Source: Vectrevirus T147P1. Taken from it: a stretch of DNA of 43,709 bases. The DNA lies in the sequence record OZ035797.1; one strand, written 5' to 3'. Below the pieces are notes generated by a model. The model had not been told where the DNA came from and ran no database searches. It saw nothing but the letters and a program-made list of their open reading frames with translations. Each line of letters begins with the position of its first letter. The stretch's first letter is position 1. This document shows positions 7,850-42,200 of this stretch, piece after piece. Made by a program: the position numbers and the translations under genes.

Positions 7850-8700
7850 GTTAATATCTTAGTGTACACAAGGGCAGACCTAGGTTTGCTCTTAGTGTAT
7901 TTACAATGGAGGTCTTATGTATATACCTATTGAAGCAATAGTAGGTTGCCTATGTTTGTTGATAGGTTTCGTTATAGGCGTAATAGCAAAGCCTTAGTAC
8001 TGTACAAGGATTAACCAAAGTCAAAATTTTGATATAGGCGTGTGTCAGCTCTCTCGCCCTCGCCCTCGCCGGGTTGTCCCCATATGGGGTCGGTCGGCGG
8101 TTGACCTAGGAATTTGGCGGGGCGGGTCCGTCTTCAACCTGCTGCCGCAGGAAGCTCGACGGGTGGGCGAGGGCTTGCCTTGTACTCGCTTAGTGGTACA
8201 CAAGGAGAACGCCTAGGAAGCGCTAGGGCACGCCTTAGTATTGGACAAGGTGATTGCCTTAGTTCAACCGCTTAGAGCTTACACGGGCCGTTTTAGGGCC
8301 ATTCCTGAGCGTTTGACAGGGTGTGAGGGCGTGGGCTATCTGTTCGTTTCGTTCACTCCGCTTGCGCTACGTTCACTCGCTCACGTGTACCTTAGGTTAT
8401 TCCTTGATGGATAGCTTAGGTTAGCCTTAGTGGATTACCTTAGTTAAAGCCTTAGTGCTTCACTTAGTATCAGCTTAGTAGTGTACCTTAGTAAGTATTA
8501 GTGTCTTCTCTTAGTGATTGCACATGCAAGCATGTAAGATGCCATTAGGTCGCGGTCGGTAGACCGCTAAAGAAGGAGAATAGTAATAAGATGCAGTAGG
8601 AGGAACACCCGAAACCTAGCCAACCTAGCCTATCCTAGCTCTGTATCTATTGCTTTTCCTTAGTCTAACATGTGAGACAACCTAGATTTATCTTAGTGAT
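7850..8700. repeat. genome terminus-like non-coding region with short repeats
   Basis: no long ORF; two copies of CTTAGTG(G)TACACAAGG near 7859 and 8189; GC-rich island with CTCGCC x3 (8053-8070) and CCCCATATGGGG (8078-8089); >10 copies of CCTTAGT/GCTTAG within 8230-8520; resembles the T7 left-end architecture. Confidence 0.5.
8664..8679. repeat. degenerate copy of the palindromic hairpin family
   Basis: GTCTAACATGTGAGAC, one substitution from the GTCTCACATGTGAGAC palindrome. Confidence 0.35.
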
Positions 8701-11367: not shown

Positions 11368-13995
11368 ATGCAAGACCTACACGCTATTCAACTTCAACTT
11401 GAAGAAGAAATGTTTAACGGCGGTATCCGTCGCTTTGAAGCGGACCAACAACGCCAGATTGCATCCGGTAATGAATCAGACACGGCATGGAATCGCCGCT
11501 TATTGTCCGAGTTAATCGCGCCAATGGCTGAAGGTATTCAGGCTTATAAGGAAGAGTACGAAGGCAAGCGCGGTCGTGCACCACGTGCATTGGCTTTCAT
11601 TAACTGCGTAGAAAATGAAGTGGCAGCGTATATCACGATGAAGATCGTAATGGATATGCTTAACACTGATGTAACCTTGCAAGCTATCGCTATGAATGTA
11701 GCTGACCGCATCGAAGACCAAGTGCGCTTCAGTAAACTAGAAGGCCATGCAGCTAAATATTTTGAGAAGGTCAAGAAGTCACTTAAGGCAAGTAAGACTA
11801 AATCATATCGCCATGCGCACAACGTAGCGGTCGTGGCTGAGAAGTCAGTAGCTGACCGTGACGCTGATTTCTCTCGCTGGGAAGCGTGGCCTAAAGATAC
11901 CTTGCTACAAATTGGGATGACCTTGCTTGAAATCTTAGAGAATAGCGTATTCTTCAACGGGCAACCTGTCTTCCTCCGCACCTTGCGCACTAATGGCGGC
12001 AAACATGGTGTTTACTACCTACAGACTAGCGAACACGTGGGTGAATGGATAACTGCATTTAAAGAGCACGTAGCTCAGCTGAGTCCAGCCTATGCGCCTT
12101 GCGTGATTCCTCCTCGTCCGTGGGTGTCACCTTTTAATGGCGGTTTTCACACGGAGAAGGTGGCAAGCCGTATTCGTCTGGTTAAAGGTAACCGCGAGCA
12201 CGTCCGCAAGCTGACCAAAAAGCAAATGCCAGCGGTTTACAAGGCTGTTAACGCCTTACAAGCTACTAAGTGGCAGGTTAACAAGGAAGTATTGCAGGTA
12301 GTAGAAGATGTTATTCGTCTAGACCTCGGTTATGGTGTACCTTCCTTTAAGCCGCTCATTGACCGCGAGAACAAACCAGCTAACCCTGTTCCTCTTGAGT
12401 TCCAGCACCTGCGAGGCCGTGAACTTAAAGAGATGCTAACGCCGGAACAATGGCAAGCCTTTATAAACTGGAAAGGAGAATGTACCAAGCTGTATACCGC
12501 TGAAACTAAGCGCGGAAGCAAGTCGGCGGCGACCGTTCGCATGGTTGGACAAGCCCGTAAATACAGCCAGTTTGACGCAATTTATTTTGTGTATGCACTG
12601 GACAGCCGTTCACGCGTTTATGCGCAATCTAGCACGCTCTCGCCGCAATCAAACGACTTAGGCAAGGCATTGCTCCGTTTTACCGAAGGGCAGCGTCTTG
12701 ATAGCACTGAGGCGCTTAAGTGGTTTTTGGTGAACGGGGCGAATAACTGGGGTTGGGATAAGAAAACTTTTGACGTGCGCACCGCTAACGTGCTGGATAG
12801 CGAATTTCAAGACATGTGCCGCGACATTGCAGCCGACCCGCTGACCTTCACTCAATGGGTAAATGCTGATTCCCCTTATGGCTTCCTTGCATGGTGCTTT
12901 GAATATGCGCGTTATCTGGATGCACTGGACGAAGGAACGCAAGACCAATTCATGACGCACCTACCCGTCCATCAAGATGGTAGTTGCTCTGGTATCCAGC
13001 ACTATAGCGCGATGTTACGAGATGAAGTAGGTGCGAAAGCAGTAAACCTTAAGCCTTCTGACTCCCCTCAAGATATTTATGGCGCGGTTGCGCAGGTTGT
13101 TATCCAGAAGAATTACGCCTACATGAATGCAGACGACGCAGTGACTTTCACATCCGGAAGCGTCACACTTACAGGTGCAGAACTGCGTAGCATGGCTAGT
13201 GCGTGGGATATGATAGGAATCACTCGCGGATTGACCAAAAAGCCCGTAATGACACTACCTTATGGCAGCACACGTCTAACCTGCCGTGAATCAGTGATTG
13301 ATTATATCGTTGATTTAGAAGAAAAAGAGGCCCAACGGGCTATTGCGGAAGGGCGTACCGCCAATCCTGTACACCCTTTTGATAATGACCGTAAAGACAG
13401 CCTGACACCTAGCGCAGCTTATAACTATATGACAGCTTTAATCTGGCCTTCTATTTCGGAAGTGGTTAAAGCTCCTATAGTGGCAATGAAAATGATTCGT
13501 CAGCTTGCCCGTTTCGCAGCTAAAAGGAATGAAGGCTTAGAGTATACCCTGCCTACTGGCTTCATCTTGCAACAAAAGATTATGGCTACTGATATGCTCC
13601 GCGTATCTACTTGCTTGATGGGAGAAATCAAGATGAGTCTACAGATTGAAACGGACGTAGTAGATGAAACGGCAATGATGGGCGCTGCTGCTCCTAACTT
13701 TGTGCATGGTCATGATGCCAGTCACCTTATCTTAACGGTCTGCGACCTTGTTGATAAAGGGATTACATCTATCGCAGTAATTCATGATTCTTTTGGCACT
13801 CATGCAGGCCGTACAGCCGATCTACGCAACAGCTTAAGGGCAGAAATGGTGAAAATGTACCAAGGCCGTAATGCACTGCAAAGCCTGCTAGATGAGCACG
13901 AAGAACGCTGGTTAGTTGATACAGGAATCCAAGTACCAGAGCAAGGGGAGTTTGACCTTAACGAAATCTTAGTTTCAGACTATTGCTTCGCATAA
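11368..13995 (+). CDS. single-subunit DNA-directed RNA polymerase (T7 gene 1 / SP6 RNAP family)
   Basis: 875 aa; [25 protein letters not shown]-terminal SDYCFA; [18 protein letters not shown] matches the T7 RNAP segment AINIAQNTAWKINKKVL. Confidence 0.95.
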
Positions 13996-14002
13996 TATTA
14001 AT

Positions 14003-14034
14003 AGGCCATTCCTTCGGGAGTGGCCTTTCTTTTA
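14003..14034 (+). terminator. early intrinsic terminator after the RNAP gene (TE-like)
   Basis: GGCCATTCC-TTCG-GGAGTGGCC hairpin with UUCG loop followed by TTTCTTTT. Confidence 0.6.
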
Positions 14035-14068
14035 CCTACTACCTGTAACATTTCATTAACATAAACGT

Positions 14069-14084
14069 GTCTCACACGTGAGAC
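14069..14084. repeat. palindromic hairpin element (family copy A)
   Basis: GTCTCACACGTGAGAC, immediately upstream of the promoter at 14087. Confidence 0.6.
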
Positions 14085-14086
14085 TT

Positions 14087-14109
14087 ATTTACCGGACACT
14101 ATAGGATAA
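14087..14109 (+). promoter_or_regulatory. phage RNAP promoter (phi1.1A-like)
   Basis: ATTTACCGGACACTATAGGAT. Confidence 0.65.
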
Positions 14110-14248
14110 CCGTCGGAGACGGAAAGAGAAGGGAAGATAAGGATATAAAGGAAGTAATAGGTATTAAAGGTTATATAGGTTTACCTAGGAATACCTATTA
14201 CCTTCTTCCTTCCTCTTATTACTACTTAGAGAAGGTCAGACCTAAGTT
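14110..14248. other. candidate primary origin of replication (AT-rich inverted repeat between tandem phage promoters)
   Basis: AT-rich; inverted repeat GGAAGTAATAGGTATT ... AATACCTATTACCTTC flanking GGTTATATAGGTTTACCTAGG; position matches the T7 primary origin between phi1.1A and phi1.1B. Confidence 0.35.
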
Positions 14249-14264
14249 GTCTCACATGTGAGAC
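14249..14264. repeat. palindromic hairpin element (family copy B)
   Basis: GTCTCACATGTGAGAC perfect palindrome, immediately upstream of the promoter at 14270. Confidence 0.6.
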
Positions 14265-14269
14265 TTCGT

Positions 14270-14290
14270 ATTTACCGGACAGTATAGATA
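14270..14290 (+). promoter_or_regulatory. phage RNAP promoter variant (phi1.1B-like)
   Basis: ATTTACCGGACAGTATAGATA; C to G change in the conserved CACTATA core. Confidence 0.45.
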
Positions 14291-14317
14291 AGACTAACTT
14301 ACTTTGGAGATTTAACC

Positions 14318-14446
14318 ATGCGTAACTTTGAGAAGATGACCCGTAAAGCTAACCGTTTTGACATGGAAGAAGGGCAGACGAAAGGCAAGAAGCTGAATAA
14401 ACCTGTCCGTGACCGTGCATCTAAACGCGCAGCATGGGAGTTCTGA
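14318..14446 (+). CDS. gp1.1-like small basic protein
   Basis: 42 aa after GGAG; MRNFEKMTRKANR...KGKKLNK..RDRA.KR resembles T7 gp1.1 as recalled. Confidence 0.55.
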   Translation: MRNFEKMTRKANRFDMEEGQTKGKKLNKPVRDRASKRAAWEF

Positions 14447-14668: not shown

Positions 14669-16656
14669 TGGCTATTATTAATAACATCCCGTGCCCTGCC
14701 TGTCAAAAGAATGGACATGATATTACTGGCAACCATCTTATGATATTTGAGGATGGCGCTGGTTACTGTAACCGTGGTCACTTCCATGATAATGGTAAGC
14801 CTTATTACCATAAGCCAGAGGGTGGTATCGAGATAACCGAATTGCCTATTACTGGCAATATCAAATATACACCTTCTCAATTCAAAGAAATGGAGAAGGA
14901 AGGGAAGATAAGCGACCCTAAGCTACGCGCCATCGCTCTTGGTGGTATGCGTATGAAAGACCGTTGGGAGGTCATGAATGAGCAAGAAAGGGCAGACCAA
15001 GAAGCAGAGTGGAAACTTGATGTTGAATGGTTCCTCACGCTTAAGCGTAAGAACCTTGTTTCCAGACACATTCGCGGCGACATTTGCGCATTGTATGATG
15101 TACGTGTCGGACACGATGAAGAGGGTAGAGTCTCGCGGCATTACTATCCACGCTTCGAGAAAGGTGAGCTAGTAGGAGCTAAGTGTCGCACATTACCTAA
15201 AGATTTTAAGTTTGGTCATTTAGGTAAACTCTTTGGTATGCAAGATCTTTTCGGTATGAATACTTTGTCTCACGTGTTAGACAAGGGGAGACGAAAGGAT
15301 TGCTTGCTTATTGTAGGCGGTGAACTTGATGCACTAGCAGCGCAGCAGATGCTCCTTGATTCTGCCAAGGGTACTAAGTGGGAGGGTCAGCCATACCATG
15401 TATGGTCTGTCAACAAAGGTGAGTCTTGCCTTGAAGAGATAGTGCAGAACCGTGAGCATATCGCCCAATTCAAGAAGATTATATGGGGTTTTGATGGAGA
15501 TGAGGTAGGGCAGAAGCAGAATCAGCAAGCGGCTCGCCTGTTTCCTGGCAAATCCTATATCCTTGAATACCCCTCTGGTTGCAAAGATGCTAACAAGGCA
15601 TTGATGGCTGGCAAGGCTAAAGAATTTGTAGATGCATGGTTTAATGCCAAGTCATCTGATGAAGTCTTTGGTAGCCAGATTAAATCTATCGCATCTCAAA
15701 GGGATAAGCTCAAGGCTGCACGTCCAGAGCAAGGACTATCATGGCCTTGGCCTAAGCTGAACAAGGTAACGCTAGGTATTCGTAAGAACCAGCTTATCAT
15801 TGTAGGTGCAGGGTCTGGTGTAGGTAAGACTGAGTTCCTTCGTGAAGTAGTTAAGCACCTCATTGAAGAACACGGTGAATCTGTAGGCATCATTTCTACA
15901 GAAGACCCGATGGTCAAGGTGTCCCGTGCTTTTATCGGCAAGTGGATTGATAAGCGTATTGAGTTACCGCCAACCAACGACCCGAAAGAAGACGGATACC
16001 GTGAGGTGTTCGACTACACCGAGGAAGAAGCTAACGCCGCCATTGATTATGTAGCTGATACAGGTAAGCTGTTTGTAGCTGACCTAGAGGGTGACTATTC
16101 GATGGAAAAGGTAGAGCAAACTTGCCTAGAGTTTGAGGCTATGGGCATTTCTAATATCATCATTGATAACTTAACGGGGATTAAATTAGATGAGCGTGCT
16201 TTTGGTGGGAAGGTTGGTGCACTTGATGAATGCGTCAAGCGGATTGGTACTATCAAAGACCGACACCCGGTTACTATATTCCTTGTATCACACCTTACAC
16301 GTCCTCCGGCAAACCGTACCCAACACGAAGAAGGTGGCGAGGTTATCCTTTCTGACTTCCGAGGCTCAGGCGCTATCGGATTCTGGGCATCTTACGCCTT
16401 GGGGATTGAGCGTAACACAAGAGCTGAAACGCTTGACGAAAGGACTACCACGTACATCTCATGTGTCAAAGACCGCGACCAAGGTATCTACACTGGAACC
16501 AAGGTCATGCTTAAGGGTGACATTCAAACCGGACGTTTAATGGAACCACAAGCCCGTACTAAGTCATTTGATACAGGTGAAGCAAGGCAACAAGAAGTAC
16601 CAGATTTACCGGACACTATAGAAGAGACTAACTTCGATGAAGAAAGTGAGTTCTGA
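14668..16656 (+). CDS. DNA primase/helicase (T7 gp4-like)
   Basis: 662 aa; N-terminal zinc ribbon CPACQ...CNRGH; Walker A GAGSGVGKTE; acidic C-terminus ending EESEF. Confidence 0.9.
   Translation: MAIINNIPCPACQKNGHDITGNHLMIFEDGAGYCNRGHFHDNGKPYYHKPEGGIEITELPITGNIKYTPSQFKEMEKEGKISDPKLRAIALGGMRMKDRWEVMNEQERADQEAEWKLDVEWFLTLKRKNLVSRHIRGDICALYDVRVGHDEEGRVSRHYYPRFEKGELVGAKCRTLPKDFKFGHLGKLFGMQDLFGMNTLSHVLDKGRRKDCLLIVGGELDALAAQQMLLDSAKGTKWEGQPYHVWSVNKGESCLEEIVQNREHIAQFKKIIWGFDGDEVGQKQNQQAARLFPGKSYILEYPSGCKDANKALMAGKAKEFVDAWFNAKSSDEVFGSQIKSIASQRDKLKAARPEQGLSWPWPKLNKVTLGIRKNQLIIVGAGSGVGKTEFLREVVKHLIEEHGESVGIISTEDPMVKVSRAFIGKWIDKRIELPPTNDPKEDGYREVFDYTEEEANAAIDYVADTGKLFVADLEGDYSMEKVEQTCLEFEAMGISNIIIDNLTGIKLDERAFGGKVGALDECVKRIGTIKDRHPVTIFLVSHLTRPPANRTQHEEGGEVILSDFRGSGAIGFWASYALGIERNTRAETLDERTTTYISCVKDRDQGIYTGTKVMLKGDIQTGRLMEPQARTKSFDTGEARQQEVPDLPDTIEETNFDEESEF
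16604..16626 (+). promoter_or_regulatory. phage RNAP promoter inside the 3' end of the helicase gene
   Basis: ATTTACCGGACACTATAGAAGAG. Confidence 0.6.
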
Positions 16657-16673: not shown

Positions 16674-16697
16674 GCTTGTCTCACATGTGAGACAGGC
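16674..16697. repeat. palindromic hairpin element (family copy C)
   Basis: GCTTGTCTCACATGTGAGACAGGC; 18-bp perfect palindrome core plus flanking pairs, followed by TCTTATT. Confidence 0.6.
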
Positions 16698-20726: not shown

Positions 20727-20784
20727 GTTATACTCAAGGTCACTTACGAGTGGCCTTTATGAATAACTTAACTAAGGAAATATT

Positions 20785-21045
20785 ATGATTAAATATACTG
20801 CTTATCAGTTAACTAAAGACCGTAAGATAGGTATTGAGGTTAAGGCTTGGGAGCGAGGTCATATCTCTGGAGTAATAGAGGTGCGTTCCAATGAAGGTAT
20901 GATGATTAGAAGACACTTTAGTTTCGCTAAATCTACTTGTAAGCATTTAACAGAGGAACAATTCTTACATCATATTATTAATAATATTAAAGCTATCCAG
21001 CCTTATGCCAAGCAAGTTGTAGGTAATGTCACAGTAGTACATTGA
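20785..21045 (+). CDS. hypothetical protein
   Basis: 86-aa ORF after AAGGAAATATT. Confidence 0.5.
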   Translation: MIKYTAYQLTKDRKIGIEVKAWERGHISGVIEVRSNEGMMIRRHFSFAKSTCKHLTEEQFLHHIINNIKAIQPYAKQVVGNVTVVH

Positions 21046-21066
21046 TTTACTGGACACTATAGAAGG
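21045..21066 (+). promoter_or_regulatory. phage RNAP promoter
   Basis: ATTTACTGGACACTATAGAAGG. Confidence 0.7.
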
Positions 21067-21131
21067 AAAGCCTAGACAATCTAGGTTTATAAGGTAGTAT
21101 AGGTAATTAAGTAAATATAGGAGATATAAAC

Positions 21132-24848: not shown

Positions 24849-25848
24849 GCTTCGCAGCTTGTACAAAGACTCCGAGGTACTTGATGCAATCGAGCAAGCT
24901 ACCGACGAGAAAGGTAATGTTAATTACAATGAGATGGCACGTGTATTATCGTGTCACCCTGTGGGTAAGAAGATTACCCGCCAGTTGGCTCGATACTGGC
25001 ATGGTCAATTCAAGAAGACCAAGAAGAATGGTGATTATTACCAGACCCTTCTGCAAGAAGATAAGCGTATCAAAGAAGAGCGTAAGCTCAGGACTCCTGA
25101 CCGCTACGAGGATTTGGCTATTGTACCATTGCCTGACTCGCCTCATCGAAGTGTACTGGTAATCCCTGATACTCATGCACCTTATGAGCATCCAGATACC
25201 TTAGAGTTCCTTGCAGCAGTCGCGGCACGTTACCGTCCAGATACAGTGGTTCACTTAGGAGATGAGGCAGATAAACACGCCCTCTCCTTCCATGACTCTG
25301 ACCCGAATCTGGATAGTGCTGGCATGGAGCTAGAGAAGTCTCGTGTCTTCATGCACAAATTGCACAAGATGTTCCCTGTGATGAGACTGTGTCACTCCAA
25401 CCACGGCTCTATGCACTTCCGTAAGGCAAGCGCTAAGGGCATCCCTGTGCAATACCTGCGCACCTACCGTGAAGTCTTCTTCCCGCAGGGAGGTGGCGAC
25501 CAGTGGGATTGGCAACATACGCACGTCCTTGAGTTGCCGAATGGTGAACAAGTGGCATTCAAGCATCAACCTGCTGGCTCTGTCCTAGCAGATGCAGCGC
25601 ATGAGCGTATGAACCTTGTGTGTGGTCACTTGCACGGTAAGATGTCTGTGGAGTACGCACGTAATACACATGAACAGTATTGGGCTGTGCAAGGTGGCTG
25701 CTTAATTGATGAGTCATCCCGTGCATTTGCCTATGGTCGTGAGTCTAAATACAAGCCAGCATTAGGTTGTGTGGTCATTCTGGAGGGTGTACCTCATATT
25801 GTCCCGATGCAAACCAATAGCGACAACCGTTGGATTGGCAAGATTTAG
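24841..25848 (+). CDS. calcineurin-like metallophosphoesterase
   Basis: TTG start at 24841 after AAGGAGG (the track ORF from 24709 overlaps the previous gene); motifs IPDTHAPY, HLGDEAD, HSNHG, GHLHG. Confidence 0.65.
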   Translation: MGKLRSLYKDSEVLDAIEQATDEKGNVNYNEMARVLSCHPVGKKITRQLARYWHGQFKKTKKNGDYYQTLLQEDKRIKEERKLRTPDRYEDLAIVPLPDSPHRSVLVIPDTHAPYEHPDTLEFLAAVAARYRPDTVVHLGDEADKHALSFHDSDPNLDSAGMELEKSRVFMHKLHKMFPVMRLCHSNHGSMHFRKASAKGIPVQYLRTYREVFFPQGGGDQWDWQHTHVLELPNGEQVAFKHQPAGSVLADAAHERMNLVCGHLHGKMSVEYARNTHEQYWAVQGGCLIDESSRAFAYGRESKYKPALGCVVILEGVPHIVPMQTNSDNRWIGKI

Positions 25849-33120: not shown

Positions 33121-35522
33121 TGGAAGTACAAGGTTCATTAGGTAGACAAATCCAAGGGATTAGCCAGCAGCCGCCAGCGGTACGCTTGGATGGTCAGTGC
33201 ACAGCTATGGTTAATATGATACCTGATGTAGTGAATGGTACTCAATCACGCATGGGTACAACTCATATTGCAAAGATACTTGATGCGGGGACTGATGACA
33301 TGGCTACTCATCATTATCGCAGAGGTGATGGTGATGAAGAGTATTTCTTCACGTTGAAGAAAGGACAAGTTCCTGAGATATTTGATAAGTATGGGCGCAA
33401 ATGTAATGTGACTTCACAAGATGCACCTATGACTTACTTAACTGAAGTAGTCAACCCAAGGGAAGATGTGCAATTTATGACTATTGCAGATGTAACCTTT
33501 ATGCTTAATCGAAGAAAGGTAGTTAAAGCTCGTACTGATAAATCACCAAAGGTTGGAAATAAGGCGATTGTCTTCTGCGCCTATGGCCAATATGGGACTA
33601 CTTATAAAATTATAATTGATGGCAATGTAGCAGCTACACGTACCACCCCTGACGGTGGTGAAGCGGGTCAAGTTGTAAATATAAGAACAGAAGACATTAC
33701 AAACCACCTTTATGATAGTTTACAGCAATGGAGTGGTATTAATGCCTACAACATCCAGAAAGATGGAACAAGTATCTTTATTGAAAAGAAAGATGGTAGC
33801 TCTTTTAATATTACTACAGAAGATGGTGCAAAAGGTAAGGACTTAGTAGCCATAAAGAACCGTGTAGCCTCTACCGACCTTCTACCCTCCCGTGCACCTG
33901 AAGGTTACAAAGTGCAAGTATGGCCTACTGGAAGTAAACCGGAGTCACGTTATTGGCTGGAAGCAGAGCCAAAAGAGGGGAATTTAGTATCATGGCAAGA
34001 GACAGTAGCGGCGGATGTTTTACTTGGCTTTGATAAAGGGACCATGCCGTATATTATTGAGCGTACAGGTATCATTGATGGTATTGCTCAATTTAAGATT
34101 AGGCAGGGTGACTGGGAAGACCGCAAGGTGGGGGATGACCTCACTAACCCTATGCCGTCTTTCATTGATGAAGAAGTTCCTCAGACAATTGGCGGAATGT
34201 TCATGGTGCAGAACCGTTTATGCTTTACAGCAGGTGAAGCTGTCATTGCATCACGCACTTCCTACTTCTTTGATTTCTTTCGTTATACGGTTATCTCTGC
34301 ATTGGCAACTGACCCATTTGATATTTTCTCAGATGCTAGTGAAGTCTACCAGTTAAAACATGCAGTGACCTTAGATGGCGCTACCGTGTTGTTCTCTGAT
34401 AAGTCACAATTCATACTGCCAGGCGATAAGTCTTTAGAGAAGTCAAATGCACTGCTTAAGCCTGTTACAACATTTGAAGTGAACAATAAAGTGAAGCCAG
34501 TAGTAACTGGTGAATCGGTAATGTTTGCCACTAATGATGGTTCTTACTCTGGTGTACGAGAGTTCTATACAGACTCTTATAGTGACACTAAGAAGGCACA
34601 AGCAATCACAAGTCATGTGAATAAACTCATCGAAGGTAACATTACCAACATGGCAGCAAGCACCAATGTCAACAGGTTACTTGTCACTACCGATAAGTAT
34701 CGTAACATAATCTACTGCTACGATTGGTTATGGCAAGGAACAGACCGTGTACAATCAGCATGGCATGTATGGAAGTGGCCTATAGGTACAAAGGTGCGAG
34801 GTATGTTTTATTCTGGTGAATTACTTTACCTGCTCCTTGAGAGAGGAGATGGCGTATATCTGGAGAAGATGGACATGGGTGATGCACTAACCTACGGTTT
34901 GAATGACCGCATCAGAATGGATAGGCAAGCAGAGTTAGTCTTCAAGTATTTTAAAGCAGAAGATGAATGGGTGTCTGAACCTCTTCCTTGGACCCCTACT
35001 AACCCAGAGCTTTTGGATTGCATCTTAATAGAAGGATGGGATTCATATATTGGTGGTTCTTTCCTATTCAAATACAACCACGGTGATAACACCTTGTCTA
35101 CAACCTTTGATATGCATGATGATAGCCACGTAAAAGCGAAGGTTATTGTTGGTCAGATTTACCCTCAAGAGTTTGAACCAACACCTGTAGTTATCAGAGA
35201 TAGGCAAGACCGTGTATCCTATATTGATGTACCTGTTGTGGGATTAGTTCACCTTAATCTTGATATGTATCCTGATTTCTCCGTGGAGGTTAAGAATGTG
35301 AAGAGTGGTAAAGTACGCAGGGTGCTAGCGTCAAACCGTATAGGTGGTGCTCTCAACAATACAGTAGGTTATGTTGAACCAAGAGAAGGTGTCTTCAGAT
35401 TCCCACTGAGAGCTAAGAGTACGGATGCTGTTTATCGTATTATTGTAGAATCACCTCACACATTCCAGCTTCGTGATATTGAGTGGGAAGGGAGCTACAA
35501 TCCAACCAAAAGGAGGGTCTAA
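33120..35522 (+). CDS. tail tubular protein B, gp12-like
   Basis: ATG overlaps the gp11 stop; ~800 aa; N-terminal GISQQP motif as in T7 gp12. Confidence 0.9.
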   Translation: MEVQGSLGRQIQGISQQPPAVRLDGQCTAMVNMIPDVVNGTQSRMGTTHIAKILDAGTDDMATHHYRRGDGDEEYFFTLKKGQVPEIFDKYGRKCNVTSQDAPMTYLTEVVNPREDVQFMTIADVTFMLNRRKVVKARTDKSPKVGNKAIVFCAYGQYGTTYKIIIDGNVAATRTTPDGGEAGQVVNIRTEDITNHLYDSLQQWSGINAYNIQKDGTSIFIEKKDGSSFNITTEDGAKGKDLVAIKNRVASTDLLPSRAPEGYKVQVWPTGSKPESRYWLEAEPKEGNLVSWQETVAADVLLGFDKGTMPYIIERTGIIDGIAQFKIRQGDWEDRKVGDDLTNPMPSFIDEEVPQTIGGMFMVQNRLCFTAGEAVIASRTSYFFDFFRYTVISALATDPFDIFSDASEVYQLKHAVTLDGATVLFSDKSQFILPGDKSLEKSNALLKPVTTFEVNNKVKPVVTGESVMFATNDGSYSGVREFYTDSYSDTKKAQAITSHVNKLIEGNITNMAASTNVNRLLVTTDKYRNIIYCYDWLWQGTDRVQSAWHVWKWPIGTKVRGMFYSGELLYLLLERGDGVYLEKMDMGDALTYGLNDRIRMDRQAELVFKYFKAEDEWVSEPLPWTPTNPELLDCILIEGWDSYIGGSFLFKYNHGDNTLSTTFDMHDDSHVKAKVIVGQIYPQEFEPTPVVIRDRQDRVSYIDVPVVGLVHLNLDMYPDFSVEVKNVKSGKVRRVLASNRIGGALNNTVGYVEPREGVFRFPLRAKSTDAVYRIIVESPHTFQLRDIEWEGSYNPTKRRV

Positions 35523-36268: not shown

Positions 36269-39216
36269 TGGCAATTGAGCGACAAGCAGTACAAGGTCTG
36301 CCACAAGTGCAGGCCACTTCTCCTAATGTCATGACCTTTGCACCTCAGCGAGTTGGAGGTGTGGAGGCTGGCGTAGCTTCTACCTCCGGTAGTCGATTTA
36401 TCGAAGACCTTATTCGAGCAGCCAGTAGTGTAGCTGATGTAACCACTGGTATCCTTAATCAAAAGATTGAGGAAGATAAGGTTGTTCAAATGGAACGGGC
36501 ATATAACGGATTAATGCCTTCTGAGGATGCAACTCGTGGTGGCGCTCGTGCTAACATGCTTGTCAAAGCTCAACTGCTAGCTAATGATGAAGCAGCACGA
36601 ATGAAAGACATGGCTACTCGTTTCCAAGGAACGGATGACGAGTGGACACAACTTATGGTTGACTCTCGTAATGAGATGCAGAATAAGCTGTTCCAGCAAT
36701 ACCCTGAGTTGCAAGGTGACAAAGATACTATGCGTATGGTCACTAATGTCTTCCAAGAACAGCAGCCTCAGATTTGGGCTACACGAACCCAGCATAAACT
36801 TGACCGTGAACAAGCAGACCGTGAGGATACCTTTGACGGGCGAGTGGCTTCTACTTGGGATTCTAATATTGACCCTGAAGCCTCTGGCTATGCTTTACAG
36901 GAACGGATCCGCGAAGGTCTTACTCAAGGATTACTACCTGAACAGATGCACAAGAAGTTAGTCCAGCGAGCAATTTCACTTGCACAAGGCGGTGATGTTA
37001 GCATGGCTGAAGCCCTGAAGTATGTGAAGGACGATAAGGGTGTTTCTGTTTATGCTAAGAATCCACAGCTTATCACAGCCATCACTAGTGGTAATGCAGT
37101 TTGGGCTAGGAATAATATAGCTGATGTAACTCGTATGTCTTTCGAAGTTAAAGAATCCTACCTTGCAGGTGATTTAACTGATGAAGAATTGTTGGAACGA
37201 GCACAGCACATTAATAATCTGACAGGTAACTCTGTCTTCTCTAATCCAGAGCTAGAGGCACTGATGCGCCAACGGGCTAAGCAGAATGCAGAGCTAGGTG
37301 CAATGCAGGATATGCGACGTGAGCTTTACTCCGACCGCCTGACTGGCTTCCAAGGTAAGACTGATAAAGAGAAGAAGGCTTACATTGATGTTATCAAACA
37401 GGATAGCCAACTTTATGCAGACCAGCAAATCAAACAACGTGGCTTGGACCCTTACAGTCAAGAGGCTGAAGCTATTCGTGGTGCAGTGGAAGTGCAGCGC
37501 CTGCAATTCATGAACTCCAAAGGCTTAGTGGATGATACCTTTGAGTCTCGTATCAAAGCCATGGAGTCTATGCTATCGCCTGAGCACTTTGCCAAGGGCG
37601 AACCACAGGAGTTGATGACTATTCGCCAGTTGTGGGAACAGTTGCCAGAAGAGAGCCGAGGTGTCTTTGGTGACACGGTGAATGGCTACATGGATAACTA
37701 CAACACTGCACTACAAATGGGAGAGACACCTTTGCAGGCTGCAAGGTTTGCGCGTGAAGCACAGCAGAAATTCTCTCGTACTGAGAAGGAAACCAAGAAG
37801 TTCAACTCAGCTATTGGAGATGCACTGGATGAGGTATCTGGTGCTGGCTGGTTTGATGGTAAAACCGAAGTGTCAGACTTAGGTAAAGCTATTGCGGAAG
37901 AAGAGTTACGAGCTAAGGCCAATATGTTGTGGTCTAGTGGTATGCGTAACATGGATTCTATCAAGAAGGCTTTAATTACTTGGGGCAATAAACGCTACAC
38001 TCAAACAGAGGATGCAAAGACTTCCGGTGGCTATTTCATTAAAGGTGATTACACTTCTGCATCTGATATGCTTATGTCAGTTGGGAAAGGCGTAAACCCT
38101 ACCGATGTACCTCTGGCGCTTGGTAGGTATGTAGAAATACAGATGCCAGAATTGAAGAAGGAGCTTCAAGAGTGGGAAACTAAAGATGATATATACATTG
38201 ATTACAATGAACAGAAAGGAACTTTTGTGATTCGTGCTGGTGCAGCAGGTCGCCCTCTTTCTGGAGTAATCCCTGTAACCTCTTTAGATACTACTTCACT
38301 ACTAGATTCTGCCTATCAGAAGAAAGTAGAGGAACGAGATAAAGGCGAGTATGTCCACCCGTATCGTACAGATATTGGTGCACAAGAGCCTATGCCAGCT
38401 AAACCAACTGCCAAAGATATTGGTAAATTTGGACTAGCTAACTTCCTCATGTCTTCTGCTTTTGCTTCTGGTGAGAATCTGCCTTCTAACTTCGAGATTA
38501 ACTATCGAGGTAATATGCAACAATTCTATGACAAGCTAGCTATGGATGAGAATAAAGATAAAGTTGGCTTTAATAAGGCAACTGGAACCTTTACTCCATA
38601 TAAAGACGCTCACGGTGAGTCTATCGGTTACGGTCATTTCTTAACGGAAGAAGAGAAGCGAAACGGGTATATTAAGATTGGCGATGAACTAGTTCCCTAT
38701 CGAGGGTCTATGTCTCAGCTTACAGAGAGCAAGGCTCGTGCTCTTATGGAGCAAGATGCTAAGAAGCATGTGCCTCCTACTCGCGACTGGAAGATTCCGT
38801 TTGACCAGATGCACCCTGCACAGCAACGTGGCTTGATGGATTTAAGCTACAATTTAGGTAAAGGTGGAATCCAGGACTCACCGCGTGCTCTTGCTGCATT
38901 CAAAGCTGGTAAGCTTACGGAAGGCTTTATCGAAATGCTGGGCACTGCATCAAGTGAAGGTAAGCGTATCCCTGGCCTACTGAAGCGACGCGCTGAGGCA
39001 TACAATATGGCATCTGCTGGTGGTGTGCCTAAGATTACCGAAGTGGAGACTCGTGAAGATGGCTCCATGTGGGTTAGGTTTGGTGGACCTATGCCAGCAG
39101 GTTCTGTCTCGGCATGGACTCATAAACGTATTGGCGCGGATGGTTGGTATCAGGTTTATGAGGCTGCACCTACCAAGTTAGCTAAAGGTTCTAAGGTAGG
39201 TAAAGTTAAGTTGTAG
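36268..39216 (+). CDS. internal virion protein (gp15-like) with C-terminal lysozyme-like domain
   Basis: 982 aa; C-terminal YKDAHGESIGYGHFLTEEE...QQRGLMDLSYNLG resembles the T4-lysozyme-type motif YKDxEGxxTIGIGH. Confidence 0.75.
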   Translation: MAIERQAVQGLPQVQATSPNVMTFAPQRVGGVEAGVASTSGSRFIEDLIRAASSVADVTTGILNQKIEEDKVVQMERAYNGLMPSEDATRGGARANMLVKAQLLANDEAARMKDMATRFQGTDDEWTQLMVDSRNEMQNKLFQQYPELQGDKDTMRMVTNVFQEQQPQIWATRTQHKLDREQADREDTFDGRVASTWDSNIDPEASGYALQERIREGLTQGLLPEQMHKKLVQRAISLAQGGDVSMAEALKYVKDDKGVSVYAKNPQLITAITSGNAVWARNNIADVTRMSFEVKESYLAGDLTDEELLERAQHINNLTGNSVFSNPELEALMRQRAKQNAELGAMQDMRRELYSDRLTGFQGKTDKEKKAYIDVIKQDSQLYADQQIKQRGLDPYSQEAEAIRGAVEVQRLQFMNSKGLVDDTFESRIKAMESMLSPEHFAKGEPQELMTIRQLWEQLPEESRGVFGDTVNGYMDNYNTALQMGETPLQAARFAREAQQKFSRTEKETKKFNSAIGDALDEVSGAGWFDGKTEVSDLGKAIAEEELRAKANMLWSSGMRNMDSIKKALITWGNKRYTQTEDAKTSGGYFIKGDYTSASDMLMSVGKGVNPTDVPLALGRYVEIQMPELKKELQEWETKDDIYIDYNEQKGTFVIRAGAAGRPLSGVIPVTSLDTTSLLDSAYQKKVEERDKGEYVHPYRTDIGAQEPMPAKPTAKDIGKFGLANFLMSSAFASGENLPSNFEINYRGNMQQFYDKLAMDENKDKVGFNKATGTFTPYKDAHGESIGYGHFLTEEEKRNGYIKIGDELVPYRGSMSQLTESKARALMEQDAKKHVPPTRDWKIPFDQMHPAQQRGLMDLSYNLGKGGIQDSPRALAAFKAGKLTEGFIEMLGTASSEGKRIPGLLKRRAEAYNMASAGGVPKITEVETREDGSMWVRFGGPMPAGSVSAWTHKRIGADGWYQVYEAAPTKLAKGSKVGKVKL

Positions 39217-39280: not shown

Positions 39281-42200
39281 ATGGAACAAGACATTAAGAC
39301 TAATTGGGCTGGATATGTCCAGTCTACTCCTGAGCCGTTTTCTATTGAGGCGGCTCCAGTATTGGCTCCTACGATACGCCAGCGTAATGAGTTACAAGAG
39401 CAAGTTCTTGAAGCTAAAGCTGACGCTGATATCTTAGGTGCTGTAGGTGCTGCCTTCCAGAATGAGTGGTTGGCATTCGGAGGCAAGCGGTGGTATGACC
39501 GTGCCACTGCTGATTTCACACCTCAACCAGACTTTGAGATACAACCTGAGCAACGTGAAGCACTACGTTTCAAATATGGTACGGATATGATGCAGACAAT
39601 CACGGAGGGTGTTCGTTCTGAGGATGAATTGAACTTCCGTATTCAGAATGCTGATGAAGACCTTGAGCGCAATAAGCGCATTGCTCAGGCTGGCTGGGTT
39701 GGCTCTGTGGCGACGATTGGCGCTGCTGTGCTTGACCCTGTGGGATGGGTTGCCTCTATTCCAACCGGTGGTGCCGCTAAAGTTGGACTCGTAGGCCGTG
39801 CTGTGCGTGGCGCTATCGCCGCTGGCGTAAGTAATGCCGCTATTGAATCCGTATTGGTCCAAGGTGACATGACTCGTGATTTAGATGACATTATGGTAGC
39901 ACTAGGCTCCGGTATGGCTATGGGTGGCGTTATTGGCGCTGTAGCGCGTGGTAGGGCCACTAAGCTCAGTGAGCAAGGGGATGACAGGGCTGCGAGCATT
40001 GTGCGCAGTGCAGACGCAGGGGACCGCTATGTGCGTGCTGTTGCTGATGATAGTATCGGTGCGATGCGTGTTAAGGGTGAAGAGGTACTCACTGAGGGTG
40101 CATTTGATATCTCTAGCAAAGGTGAAGATTTGCTGAAAACCCTACAGCGGGAAGGTAATGCAATTGATATGACCCCTCGCCGCTGGGCCGGAACTCTGTC
40201 TGCCCTTGGTACTGTCGTACATTCCTCTCAGGATGCAAGTGTACGCGGCCTTGGTGCTCGCCTGTTTGAGTCCCCCCAAGGCTTAGGTATGCAGAAGGCA
40301 TCTGCTAGTCTCATGCAGAATACTAACTTGAACCGTCTGAAATCTGCTGATATGAATCGTTTCAACGATGGGTTCGATTTATGGCTCAAAGAGAATAATA
40401 TCAACCCGGTTGCAGGTCATACTAACTCTCACTATGTGCAGCAATATAATGAGAAGGTATGGGAAGCTGTACGCATCGGTATGGATGAGTCTACGCCTAA
40501 GTCTATCCGTATGGCAGCAGAAGGGCAGCAAGCTATGTATCGTGAAGCATTAGCATTACGTCAACGCTCTGGTGAAGCTGGGTTTGAAAAGGTTAAAGCA
40601 GATGATAAGTACATGCCTGATATTTTTGACAGTATGAAGGCTCGTCGTCAGTTCAGTATGCACGATAAAGAGGACATCATTGAGTTATTCTCTCGTGCAT
40701 ACCAGAATGGTTCTCGTAAGGTTCCAAAGGAAGTGGCTGATGATATTGCACGAGCACAAGTAAACCGCGTTGCTGATGCCACCTTGACCGGACAGCTTAG
40801 CTTTGAAAAGGCTATGTCTGGTCAAACCAAAGCAGAATATGAAGCACTCATGCGCAAAGCAGGCTTTAGTGATGAAGAGATTGAAAAGATGGTAGAAGCT
40901 CTGGATAATAAAGAAACCAGAGATAATATCTCTAACCGAGCTAAGATGAGTTTAGGCTTAGATGTTACTCAAGAGTACAATGGTATTCGTATGCGTGACT
41001 TTATGAACACTAACGTGGAAGAGTTAACAGATAACTACATGAAGGAAGCGGCAGGTGGTGCTGCCTTGGCTCGTCAAGGTTTCTCTACCTATCAGGCTGC
41101 ACTTAATGCAATTGATCTTGTAGAGCGAAATGCACGAAATGCAGCTAAAGATACAAAAGCACACGCACAATTTGAAGCGGAGTCGGCTAAGATCCGTCAA
41201 TCAGAGCCTGATTACAAGAAGGCACAAGAGAAGATTGAAGAGTTAAAGAAGCGACTTAAATTGAAAGAGAAAGATGAAGCAGCAGGTCTGGCTATTGATG
41301 AAGAAATCCGTCAGATGCGAGAGGGGCTTCGCTTGATTATGGGTAAATCTATCGATTCAAACCCACAAGATTTGTCTACTAAAATGCTGCGTCGTGGGCG
41401 TGACATTACAGGTGTACTTCGCTTAGGTCAGATGGGCTTCGCACAGCTAGGTGAACTTGCTAACTTCATGGGTGAGTTTGGTATTGCTGCCACCACTATG
41501 GCTTTAGGTAAGCAATTCCGCTTCACCTCTAAGGCGTTGCGTAATGGCGATGGCTTCTTTCGAGATAAGAATTTAGCTGAGGTTGAGCGAATGGTAGGTT
41601 ACATTGGTGAAGACAACTGGCTAACAACTAAGGGTGCGCGTCCAGATGAGTTTGGTGATGTAACCACAGTGCGAGGTATGATGGCTCATTTTGACCAGTC
41701 CATGAACTCTATACGACGTGCTCAGACAAACCTATCCCTCTTCCGCATGGCTCAAGGTTCTCTAGAGCGAATGACTAATAGGCAAATAGCCCTATCTTTC
41801 ATTGACCACCTTGAAGGCAAGAAGATTATTCCTCAGAAGAAACTGGAGGAACTTGGTCTTACTCAGGAGTTCATGACTAACCTACAGAAGCACTATGATG
41901 CTAACTCTAAAGGTTCTGGCTTGCTTGGCTTTGATACAATGCCTTATGCCATGGGTGAAACTTTAGCTAATGCTATTCGTCGTAAGTCAGGTCTAATTAT
42001 CCAACGTAACTTCATTGGTGATGAAGGTATCTGGATGAACAAAGCACTAGGTAAGACATTTGCACAGCTTAAGTCATTCTCTCTTGTATCTGGTGAGAAG
42101 CAATTTGGTCGAGGGATTCGCCACGATAAAATTGGTCTTGCTAAGAAGACAGCTTACGGTTTTGCTTTGGGTTCAATAGTGTATGCGGCAAAAGCCTATG

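Follow-up and report, generated by a model that had tools for sequence, protein, structure and literature searches.

The gap between the RNA polymerase (RNAP) gene and the next small gene of Vectrevirus T147P1 (sequence record OZ035797.1) raises the question of whether this phage begins its DNA replication there. The window, by which we mean the whole 43,709-bp stretch of DNA analyzed, is a complete K1E/K1-5-like coliphage genome (Autographiviridae, Molineuxvirinae, Vectrevirus) in circularly permuted form. A sequence-only reading had proposed positions 14087 to 14290 as a candidate primary replication origin with the layout found in phage T7, in which two tandem phage promoters, each preceded by a palindromic element, flank an AT-rich segment containing a long inverted repeat. 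We are all but certain that the locus is homologous by position to T7 phi1.1A–R1.1–phi1.1B, that is, the same locus in a sister subfamily, and equally so that it forms the early-to-middle transcription junction of an SP6/K1-5-type phage. It may in addition work as a T7-type origin primed by transcripts from its first promoter, a proposal for which we judge the chances to be evenly poised. The locus is one of three modules in the genome that combine a promoter with easily melted DNA, and it is the likeliest "primary" origin of the three only through its position. Sequence cannot settle which is primary, because two further promoters have a module of this kind.

Phages of the K1E, K1-5 and SP6 type serve therapeutic purposes and supply orthogonal RNA polymerases, and no mapping of their replication origins was found in the literature searched. 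A locus homologous to that of T7, together with exactly two sister sites picked out by a stability test calibrated on T7, provides a concrete target for origin mapping. For genome engineering, it indicates which non-coding DNA to keep and what a minimal replicon needs. The promoters were already known in this phage group, and an origin at this place would add one more of the known T7 kind. New features are the promoter-specific TAGG arrays, a syntenic palindrome family and a fixed off-consensus second promoter, which are unannotated in the public records examined (K1-5, K1E, LL11 and SP6) and can be tested as regulatory elements.

The junction behind the RNA polymerase gene

The locus occupies the gap between the gene for the 875-aa phage single-subunit RNAP (11368-13995, + strand), an open reading frame (ORF) annotated as RNAP in K1-5, K1E and LL11, and the 42-codon gene 8 (14318-14446, + strand). 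The gene 8 product was identified as a 42-aa homologue of the T7 gene 1.1 product, gp1.1, by BLASTP (59% identity, E 1e-13) and by a match to the Pfam family PF08200 Phage_1_1 (58.8 bits with a cut-off of 21, E 7e-16), and its SP6 counterpart carries the same annotation in RefSeq. In T7, the promoters phi1.1A (5848) and phi1.1B (5923) sit between gene 1 and gene 1.1. Because the RNAP gene, which is the left synteny anchor with T7 gene 1, lies upstream and the gp1.1 homologue, which is the right anchor, lies downstream, as in T7, we consider this to be the same locus and not a mere resemblance. The direct terminal repeat occurs once in the window. Alignment of K1-5 to the window places K1-5 position 35368 at window position 1 and the physical left end at approximately window position 8100 (terminal-repeat area approximately 8054-8290), and the locus lies approximately 6.0 kb from this end, at 13.7% of the genome.

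Both promoters and the palindromes ahead of them were present where the sequence-only reading had placed them. The first promoter, P1 (TATTTACCGGACACTATAG, 14086-14104), was matched by the promoter pattern at 14087-14104 of the + strand (ATTTACCGGACACTATAG); it has a consensus core, starts transcription (+1) at the G at 14104 and is kept in all relatives, in each with the specificity of its own clade. The second, P2 (TATTTACCGGACAGTATAG, 14269-14287; pattern match ATTTACCGGACAGTATAG, 14270-14287, + strand), has its +1 at the G at 14287, giving a start-to-start distance of 183 bp. With up to three mismatches allowed, the promoter pattern gave 10 genome matches, every one on the + strand, compared with 0 in 100 shuffles, and a looser scan added an eleventh site at 25843. 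The first 165 nt of the P1 transcript are non-coding, and the ORF list contains no ORF of at least 30 aa between 13995 and 14299.

P2 carries G in place of C at position -5 (14282), a core change that had already been pointed out in the earlier reading. This G is invariant among the 14 Vectrevirus locus records, none of which has C; the records represent 13 distinct sources, with K1-5 counted twice. The C-5G change is shared with the Proteus phages, while the SP6 group has A-1T, clade L025 has A-1G and clade L019 has A-6C; the P2 core equals the consensus in two clades. Because P2 is also off-consensus in most other clades, the deviation looks selected in most lineages and not like decay, and it suggests selection for an attenuated or special promoter. 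As a separate observation, the promoters of the genome appeared to form two sub-classes when those at 14087, 14270 and 16604 were compared with those at 2226, 3894, 21045, 21508, 22654 and 31047, with ACCGGACA before DNA-metabolism genes and ACTGGACA elsewhere. The first transcribed bases are GGATAA for P1 and GATAAG for P2, as against the usual GAAG start.

A terminator scan identified an intrinsic terminator on the + strand directly behind the RNAP gene (14003-14034), with a 10-bp stem (AGGCCATTCC/GGAGTGGCCT), a TTCG loop and a TTCTTTT tail. The stem (14003-14026) starts eight bases past the RNAP stop codon, and the terminator was found in all relatives. In a related Vibrio phage the equivalent hairpin, named TE, is the terminator of early transcription by the host polymerase (PMC4099482, phiA318/AS51). 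We regard it as strongly supported that the terminator at 14003-14034 ends early-gene transcription by the host RNAP.

The 600 bp around the locus are 99.5% identical to Vectrevirus DIJ06P1 and approximately 95%–96% identical to K1E and K1-5, and 90 GenBank phage records match this segment. The wider comparison covered 25 SP6-group loci, whose RNAP C-terminal regions are 72%–100% identical to the query. The order of elements was kept in these 25 relatives (terminator, palindrome, promoter, stem-loop, AGG array with hairpin, a second palindrome in most, and the second promoter), which use at least six promoter specificities. Clades L024 to L029 lack the second palindrome. Behind the RNAP gene, Erwinia phage Era103 and Pantoea phage Nifs112 also keep the terminator, palindromes and a promoter with a TAGGTAGG array after it, and in Vibrio phage AS51 a purine-rich spacer separates two promoters that are 82 bp apart. 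A second, profile-based scan of IMG/VR returned no further SP6-group relatives, the next matches being at most 33% identical in the RNAP C-terminal region.

Easily melted DNA and the three promoter modules

T7 replication begins at phi1.1A/phi1.1B, phiOR and phi6.5 are secondary origins, and every T7 origin requires a promoter for T7 RNAP (PMC8373140). We computed nearest-neighbour duplex stability along whole genomes with window sizes (W) of 60, 80 and 100, and T7 served as the control. The four least stable windows of T7 lay directly behind phiOL, phi1.1B, phi6.5 and phiOR at every window size tried. PhiOL has itself been named as a possible T7 origin, since AT-rich DNA follows it. In the present genome, the segment behind P1 (approximately 14134-14233), which overlaps the AGG array and the long hairpin described below, ranked third in instability at W = 100, fifth at W = 60 and sixth at W = 80; its companions in the ranking were the DNA following the promoters at 2226 and 21045 and an inserted AT-rich ORF. 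For K1-5, the three 80-bp windows of lowest stability followed the post-DNA-polymerase promoter, the post-terminase promoter and P1, with P1 third, and in SP6 the segments behind the same three promoters were all in the top four. The AT-richness claimed for the locus was borne out in part, as its A+T content is 62% compared with a genome mean of 55% and peaks at 70% per 100 bp, but this is only moderate, at least six other 100-bp windows of the genome being at least as AT-rich as the peak.

Both sister modules lie on the + strand. In the module at the T7 phiOR position (2226-2385), the post-terminase promoter (+1 at 2243) leads into a TAGGTA array with a hairpin and very unstable duplex, and in the other (21045-21131) the post-DNA-polymerase promoter (+1 at 21062) leads into TAGGTT, AAGGTA and TAGGTA units, again with very unstable duplex. 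In relatives, sister modules were located at 37610 and 12597 in K1-5, 37790 and 12559 in SP6, 40265-40440 and 13562-13665 in Era103, and 38649 in Proteus phage PM85. The T7 primary origin is only the third least stable T7 site, and therefore stability rank does not tell which module is primary. Upstream of the post-DNA-polymerase promoter we also noted an AT-rich segment (20770-21039) with an 86-codon ORF (20785-21045), which did not align to K1-5 and looks like an insertion; it supplies two of the least stable duplex windows of the genome.

Repeat analysis of the DNA behind P1 revealed a purine-rich array on the + strand (14126-14192) with seven AGG at a spacing of 9-10 bp (14130, 14140, 14149, 14159, 14168, 14177 and 14187), which overlaps the most purine-rich 60-mer of the genome. 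Its units (TATAGGTA, AATAGGTA) resemble promoter positions -4 to +4. They are short and degenerate in this phage, for which Tandem Repeats Finder gave a score of 35 and only 2.8 copies; behind P1 in SP6, L024 and L027 it gave period-10 arrays of 4.8–5.7 copies, and the unit is AGGT in most clades. When the 11 promoters were compared over +1 to +110, [AT]AGG[TA] occurred six times behind P1 and five times behind each of the promoters at 2226 and 21045, as against zero to two times behind the other eight, and a count of at least five was reached by 0.8% of all 110-nt windows. The array-bearing promoters are the same in K1-5, SP6 and Era103, the Era103 arrays being 6.5 perfect repeats of units of 27 bp and 16 bp, and PM85 has just two such places in its whole genome, one at the post-RNAP promoter and one at the post-terminase promoter. 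Across four genera the TAGGTA core is preserved, and each genome has it at two or three specific sites. An 18-nt stretch, TATATAGGTT(A/T)ACCTAGG, is common to 2281-2298 and 14172-14189.

It is conceivable, but in our estimation unlikely, that the TAGGTA arrays are a previously undescribed cis-element that would turn an ordinary promoter into a site of replication initiation or of handover from RNAP to DNA polymerase. SP6-like phages (Molineuxvirinae) would in that case mark a fixed two or three promoters with it, namely the post-RNAP, the post-terminase and, in most genera, the post-DNA-polymerase promoter. If this were true, the arrays would be the SP6-group counterpart of the T7 primary and secondary origins, with a sequence-specific component foreign to T7.

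For the P1 locus itself, the proposal of a T7-type origin draws on a promoter for the phage's own RNAP that fires rightward, an easily unwound segment behind P1 and the position of the T7 primary origin. It is strongly supported that newly made phage RNAP can start at P1 and P2 after early transcription ends, with P2 placed ahead of gene 8, gene 8.5 and the primase-helicase gene. Transcription from P1 would open the easily melted stretch, as at the T7 primary origin, and the phage DNA polymerase could then extend the 3' end of this transcript, which would serve as the primer for rightward leading-strand synthesis. The primase-helicase might then load on the displaced purine-rich strand.

A number of points weigh against this proposal. 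The T7 layout claimed in the earlier reading was found in the gene neighbours, the tandem promoters, the position at approximately 14% and the unstable DNA behind P1, but the unstable AT-rich stretch lies between the promoters here and after both of them in T7. P2 has no easily unwound segment behind it, as its leader is only approximately 30 nt long between the +1 and the ATG start codon of gene 8. The triplet GCA was found on neither strand (GCA/TGC) in the approximately 330 nt from 13990 to 14318, compared with 7.2 expected per 183 nt, and most relatives have a single GCA, within GGGCAGAC. The recognition triplet of the SP6 primase is reportedly 5'-GCA-3', and if this specificity holds here a primase site of the T7-origin kind appears to be missing. 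The post-DNA-polymerase and post-terminase modules are equally unstable or more so, and in Era103 the stability test did not single out the sites. The cumulative GC skew of the re-oriented genome was a steady, transcription-driven rise that is uninformative on an origin, and T7 tolerates deletion of its own primary origin. According to a second-hand remark in PMC4837284, Dobbins et al. (2004) put a bidirectional SP6 origin at the DNA polymerase gene; our full-text literature searches returned no statement on an SP6-group origin apart from this one.

Hairpins, palindromes and rival explanations

The long inverted repeat that had been described between the promoters is present and takes the form of an imperfect hairpin on the + strand (14124-14217), which was found by inverted-repeat search and by folding. 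Its outer arms are at 14124-14137 and 14204-14217 and its inner arms at 14148-14165 and 14190-14207, the inner arms being 18 nt long and 89% complementary, and it pairs the purine AGG tract with a CCT-rich arm. The minimum free energy (MFE) hairpin starts approximately 20 nt past the P1 start and has stems of 5, 8 and 11-12 bp split by internal loops. Taken alone, the inverted repeat exceeds chance only modestly, with MFE z-scores of -1.7 to -2.0 (+ strand) and -3.2 to -4.1 (- strand), or approximately 2-4 standard deviations beyond shuffles. Because all seven sequence clades have a long hairpin at this place despite their differing sequence (+ strand z -1.7 to -4.9), we consider the inverted repeat credible. 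The arms were unalignable between clades, and RNAalifold recovered the apical hairpin only, with a covariation term of +0.58. Consensus folding of the SP6 clade, in which the 3' arms were unaligned, yielded no more of the long hairpin than its apical part, besides the 5' stem-loop and the palindrome. The folding-energy preference between the + and - strands was mixed between clades and does not separate a role in RNA from one in DNA.

The 5' stem-loop (CCGTC-GGA-GACGG, 14110-14122, + strand) spans +7 to +19 of the P1 transcript and has a 5-bp stem whose middle pair covaries. It is fully paired in 16 distinct sequences, in which the middle pair is GC (nine), AU (five), CG (one) or UA (one), and its covariation score was reached by 0 of 500 shuffles.

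These structures could also serve transcription and RNA processing only. The locus would then be the start of class II transcription, the long hairpin would be a site for host RNase III like T7 R1.1, and the 5' stem-loop and the palindromic hairpins would stabilize, pause or end transcripts, while replication would start elsewhere, behind the post-DNA-polymerase or post-terminase promoter or near the ends. We hold this explanation to be a serious one that is nevertheless somewhat doubtful, and it fits the anatomy of the locus equally well. In T7, the R1.1 RNase III hairpin is said to lie between phi1.1A and phi1.1B and a 61-bp AT-rich segment after phi1.1B, the whole making up the primary origin, and several T7 promoters directly precede RNase III sites. 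Because the inverted repeat occupies the place of the R1.1 hairpin, a role in the RNA accounts for it no less well than an origin role does, and the presence of the hairpin in all seven clades is a further point in favour of RNase III. Such a hairpin needs no sequence-conserved TAGG array of approximately 10-bp period, however; the post-DNA-polymerase array at 21045 is without any complementary arm, and folding energies that do not consistently favour the + strand leave the signature of RNA-level pairing lacking. A replication start elsewhere would agree with the post-DNA-polymerase region being the least stable DNA in K1-5, SP6 and PM85 and with the second-hand placement of an SP6 origin near the DNA polymerase gene. 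An exclusively transcriptional explanation is, on the other hand, compatible with origin function, as in T7 the same DNA serves both roles.

The palindromes extend well beyond the locus. The copy at -35 to -20 of P1 (GTCTCAC-AC-GTGAGAC, GTCTCACACGTGAGAC, 14069-14084) and that at -38 to -23 of P2 (GTCTCAC-AT-GTGAGAC, GTCTCACATGTGAGAC, 14249-14264) are two of the eight genome copies of the 16-bp motif GTCYMAC-NN-GTKRGAC (8663, 14069, 14249, 15267, 16678, 17825, 22623 and 39234), compared with 0.27 expected. The palindrome sites are common to K1-5, SP6, Era103 and PM85, and Vibrio phage AS51 has one copy, ahead of a promoter; the family was sought in T7 and was absent. Some copies are directly upstream of phage promoters, while others lie inside primase and RNAP coding regions. 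Those at 16678, 17825 and 39234 follow genes and cap stems of 13-15 bp with G·U pairs, which are succeeded by U-rich tails. Because the eight-copy family is spread genome-wide at gene boundaries, the palindromes are not origin-specific and are a general feature of the genome at such boundaries. Taken together with the position of the inverted repeat at the T7 R1.1 place, this removes both elements from the origin marks on which the sequence-only reading had drawn.

Both locus palindromes fitted a loose terminator scan, with a 6-bp stem of 3 G-C pairs and a T-rich tail that doubles as the upstream part of the promoter, which is weak for a terminator; the second scored terminator-like together with the following TTCGTATTTA. 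This pattern, and the use of the same core to cap the longer G·U stems, favours a purely transcriptional role, and we consider the long hairpin and the palindromes to be best read as transcript elements (processing, pausing or termination) and not as origin determinants. The arms of the palindrome change jointly between genera (TCTCAC/GTGAGA versus TCCAAC/GTTGGA), and non-complementary mixtures also occur. Mismatches between arms were counted as 11 G·U versus 5 A·C, with 13 "other", and since the copies are non-independent the contrast between G·U and A·C is undecided. In the unlikely reading of the TAGGTA arrays as an origin-making cis-element, the palindrome would join them as a second, independent cis-element read by some factor. 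CRP, LexA and LacI-family operators were considered as readers and set aside on the geometry of their consensus sequences. The palindrome at 15267-15282 lies inside the primase-helicase ORF at approximately codon 200, a conserved place (position 738 in L016-L026, 5754 in Era103), and several relatives have copies at conserved positions within the RNAP ORF.

We consider it improbable that P1 makes a discrete, abundant non-coding RNA of approximately 165-175 nt, which would begin with the 5' stem-loop, continue through a domain of AGG repeats and finish just before P2, with the palindromic hairpin and its U-rich tail as its 3' end. Such an RNA could act in trans, e.g. as a sponge for an RNA-binding protein of host or phage, or for ribosomes via the seven Shine-Dalgarno-like AGG units. 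It would be consistent with the consensus P1, the ORF-free spacer, the covarying 5' stem-loop, the terminator pattern formed by 14249-14264 with TTCGTATTTA, and the separate expression of gene 8 from P2. Its 3' hairpin would nevertheless be a weak terminator and is missing with the second palindrome in clades L024 to L029, and an Rfam scan of 13900-14400 at E up to 1 returned chance-level matches only, far under gathering scores. The units are, moreover, mostly AGGT and not the GGA of CsrA-type sponge RNAs, and the arrays at the 2226 and 21045 promoters belong to mRNA leaders.

An iteron-type origin, in which the approximately 10-bp TAGGTA units would bind a dedicated phage initiator that melts the adjacent DNA and the promoters would be supporting only, is very improbable: direct repeats at about one helical turn, the core kept across four genera and the 6.5 perfect copies in Era103, which point to concerted evolution, would suit it, but the units are short and degenerate here, no initiator-like gene was adjacent in a search that covered the neighbours only (gp1.1, an unknown 72-aa protein and the primase-helicase), and we know of no T7-supergroup phage that uses an initiator.

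To the right of the locus the gene order is gene 8 (42 codons), the 72-codon gene 8.5 and the primase-helicase gene, and the 72-aa product matched phrog_24605, a protein of unknown function. At approximately 8200-8520, beside the terminal-repeat region, approximately 15 CTTAG(T/G) units form an array, of which a 24-bp tandem repeat (8388-8457) is part. This array recalls the short-repeat arrays that flank the T7 terminal repeats.

Comparison with T7 and other known systems

The locus resembles the T7 primary origin in lying between the RNAP gene and gene 1.1 at approximately 14%–15% from the left end, in having two tandem rightward phage promoters with a hairpin between them, and in the exceptionally unstable duplex just past a promoter. 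It differs in the distance between promoters, which is 183 bp here and 75 bp in T7, and in the terminator, which stands right after the RNAP gene here while T7 TE comes after gene 1.3. The AGG array, the covarying 5' stem-loop and the two palindromes are all without counterpart in T7, and no clear 10-bp repeats were found when sought in the T7 AT-rich origin segment. No primase site is apparent here, and origin activity is experimentally established for T7 only. The T7 R1.1 RNase III site is likewise an irregular hairpin in a transcribed spacer between two post-RNAP promoters. The present hairpin has no sequence similarity to R1.1 and is longer, with one arm of purines and the other of pyrimidines.

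R-loop or transcript-primed origins (ColE1 RNA II, T4 oriF and oriG, and the mitochondrial heavy-strand origin with its conserved sequence block, OH/CSB) also have a promoter that reads into a hybrid-favouring stretch. Here this stretch is 14094-14153, one of the genome's five 60-nt windows with the strongest preference for an RNA-DNA hybrid over the duplex. The T7 origins themselves are without such a bias and SP6 shows it weakly, and we dropped hybrid bias as a general mark of origins.

The remaining T7 sites, phiOR, phi6.5 and phiOL, were compared with the sister modules. This phage has no left-end phage promoter, whereas PM85 and Era103 have one. The sister modules carry TAGGTA arrays, of which the T7 secondary origins have none. 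The likeness lies in the stability test, which finds phiOR, phi6.5 and phiOL in T7 and, in this genome, the post-terminase module, located as phiOR is, and the post-DNA-polymerase module.

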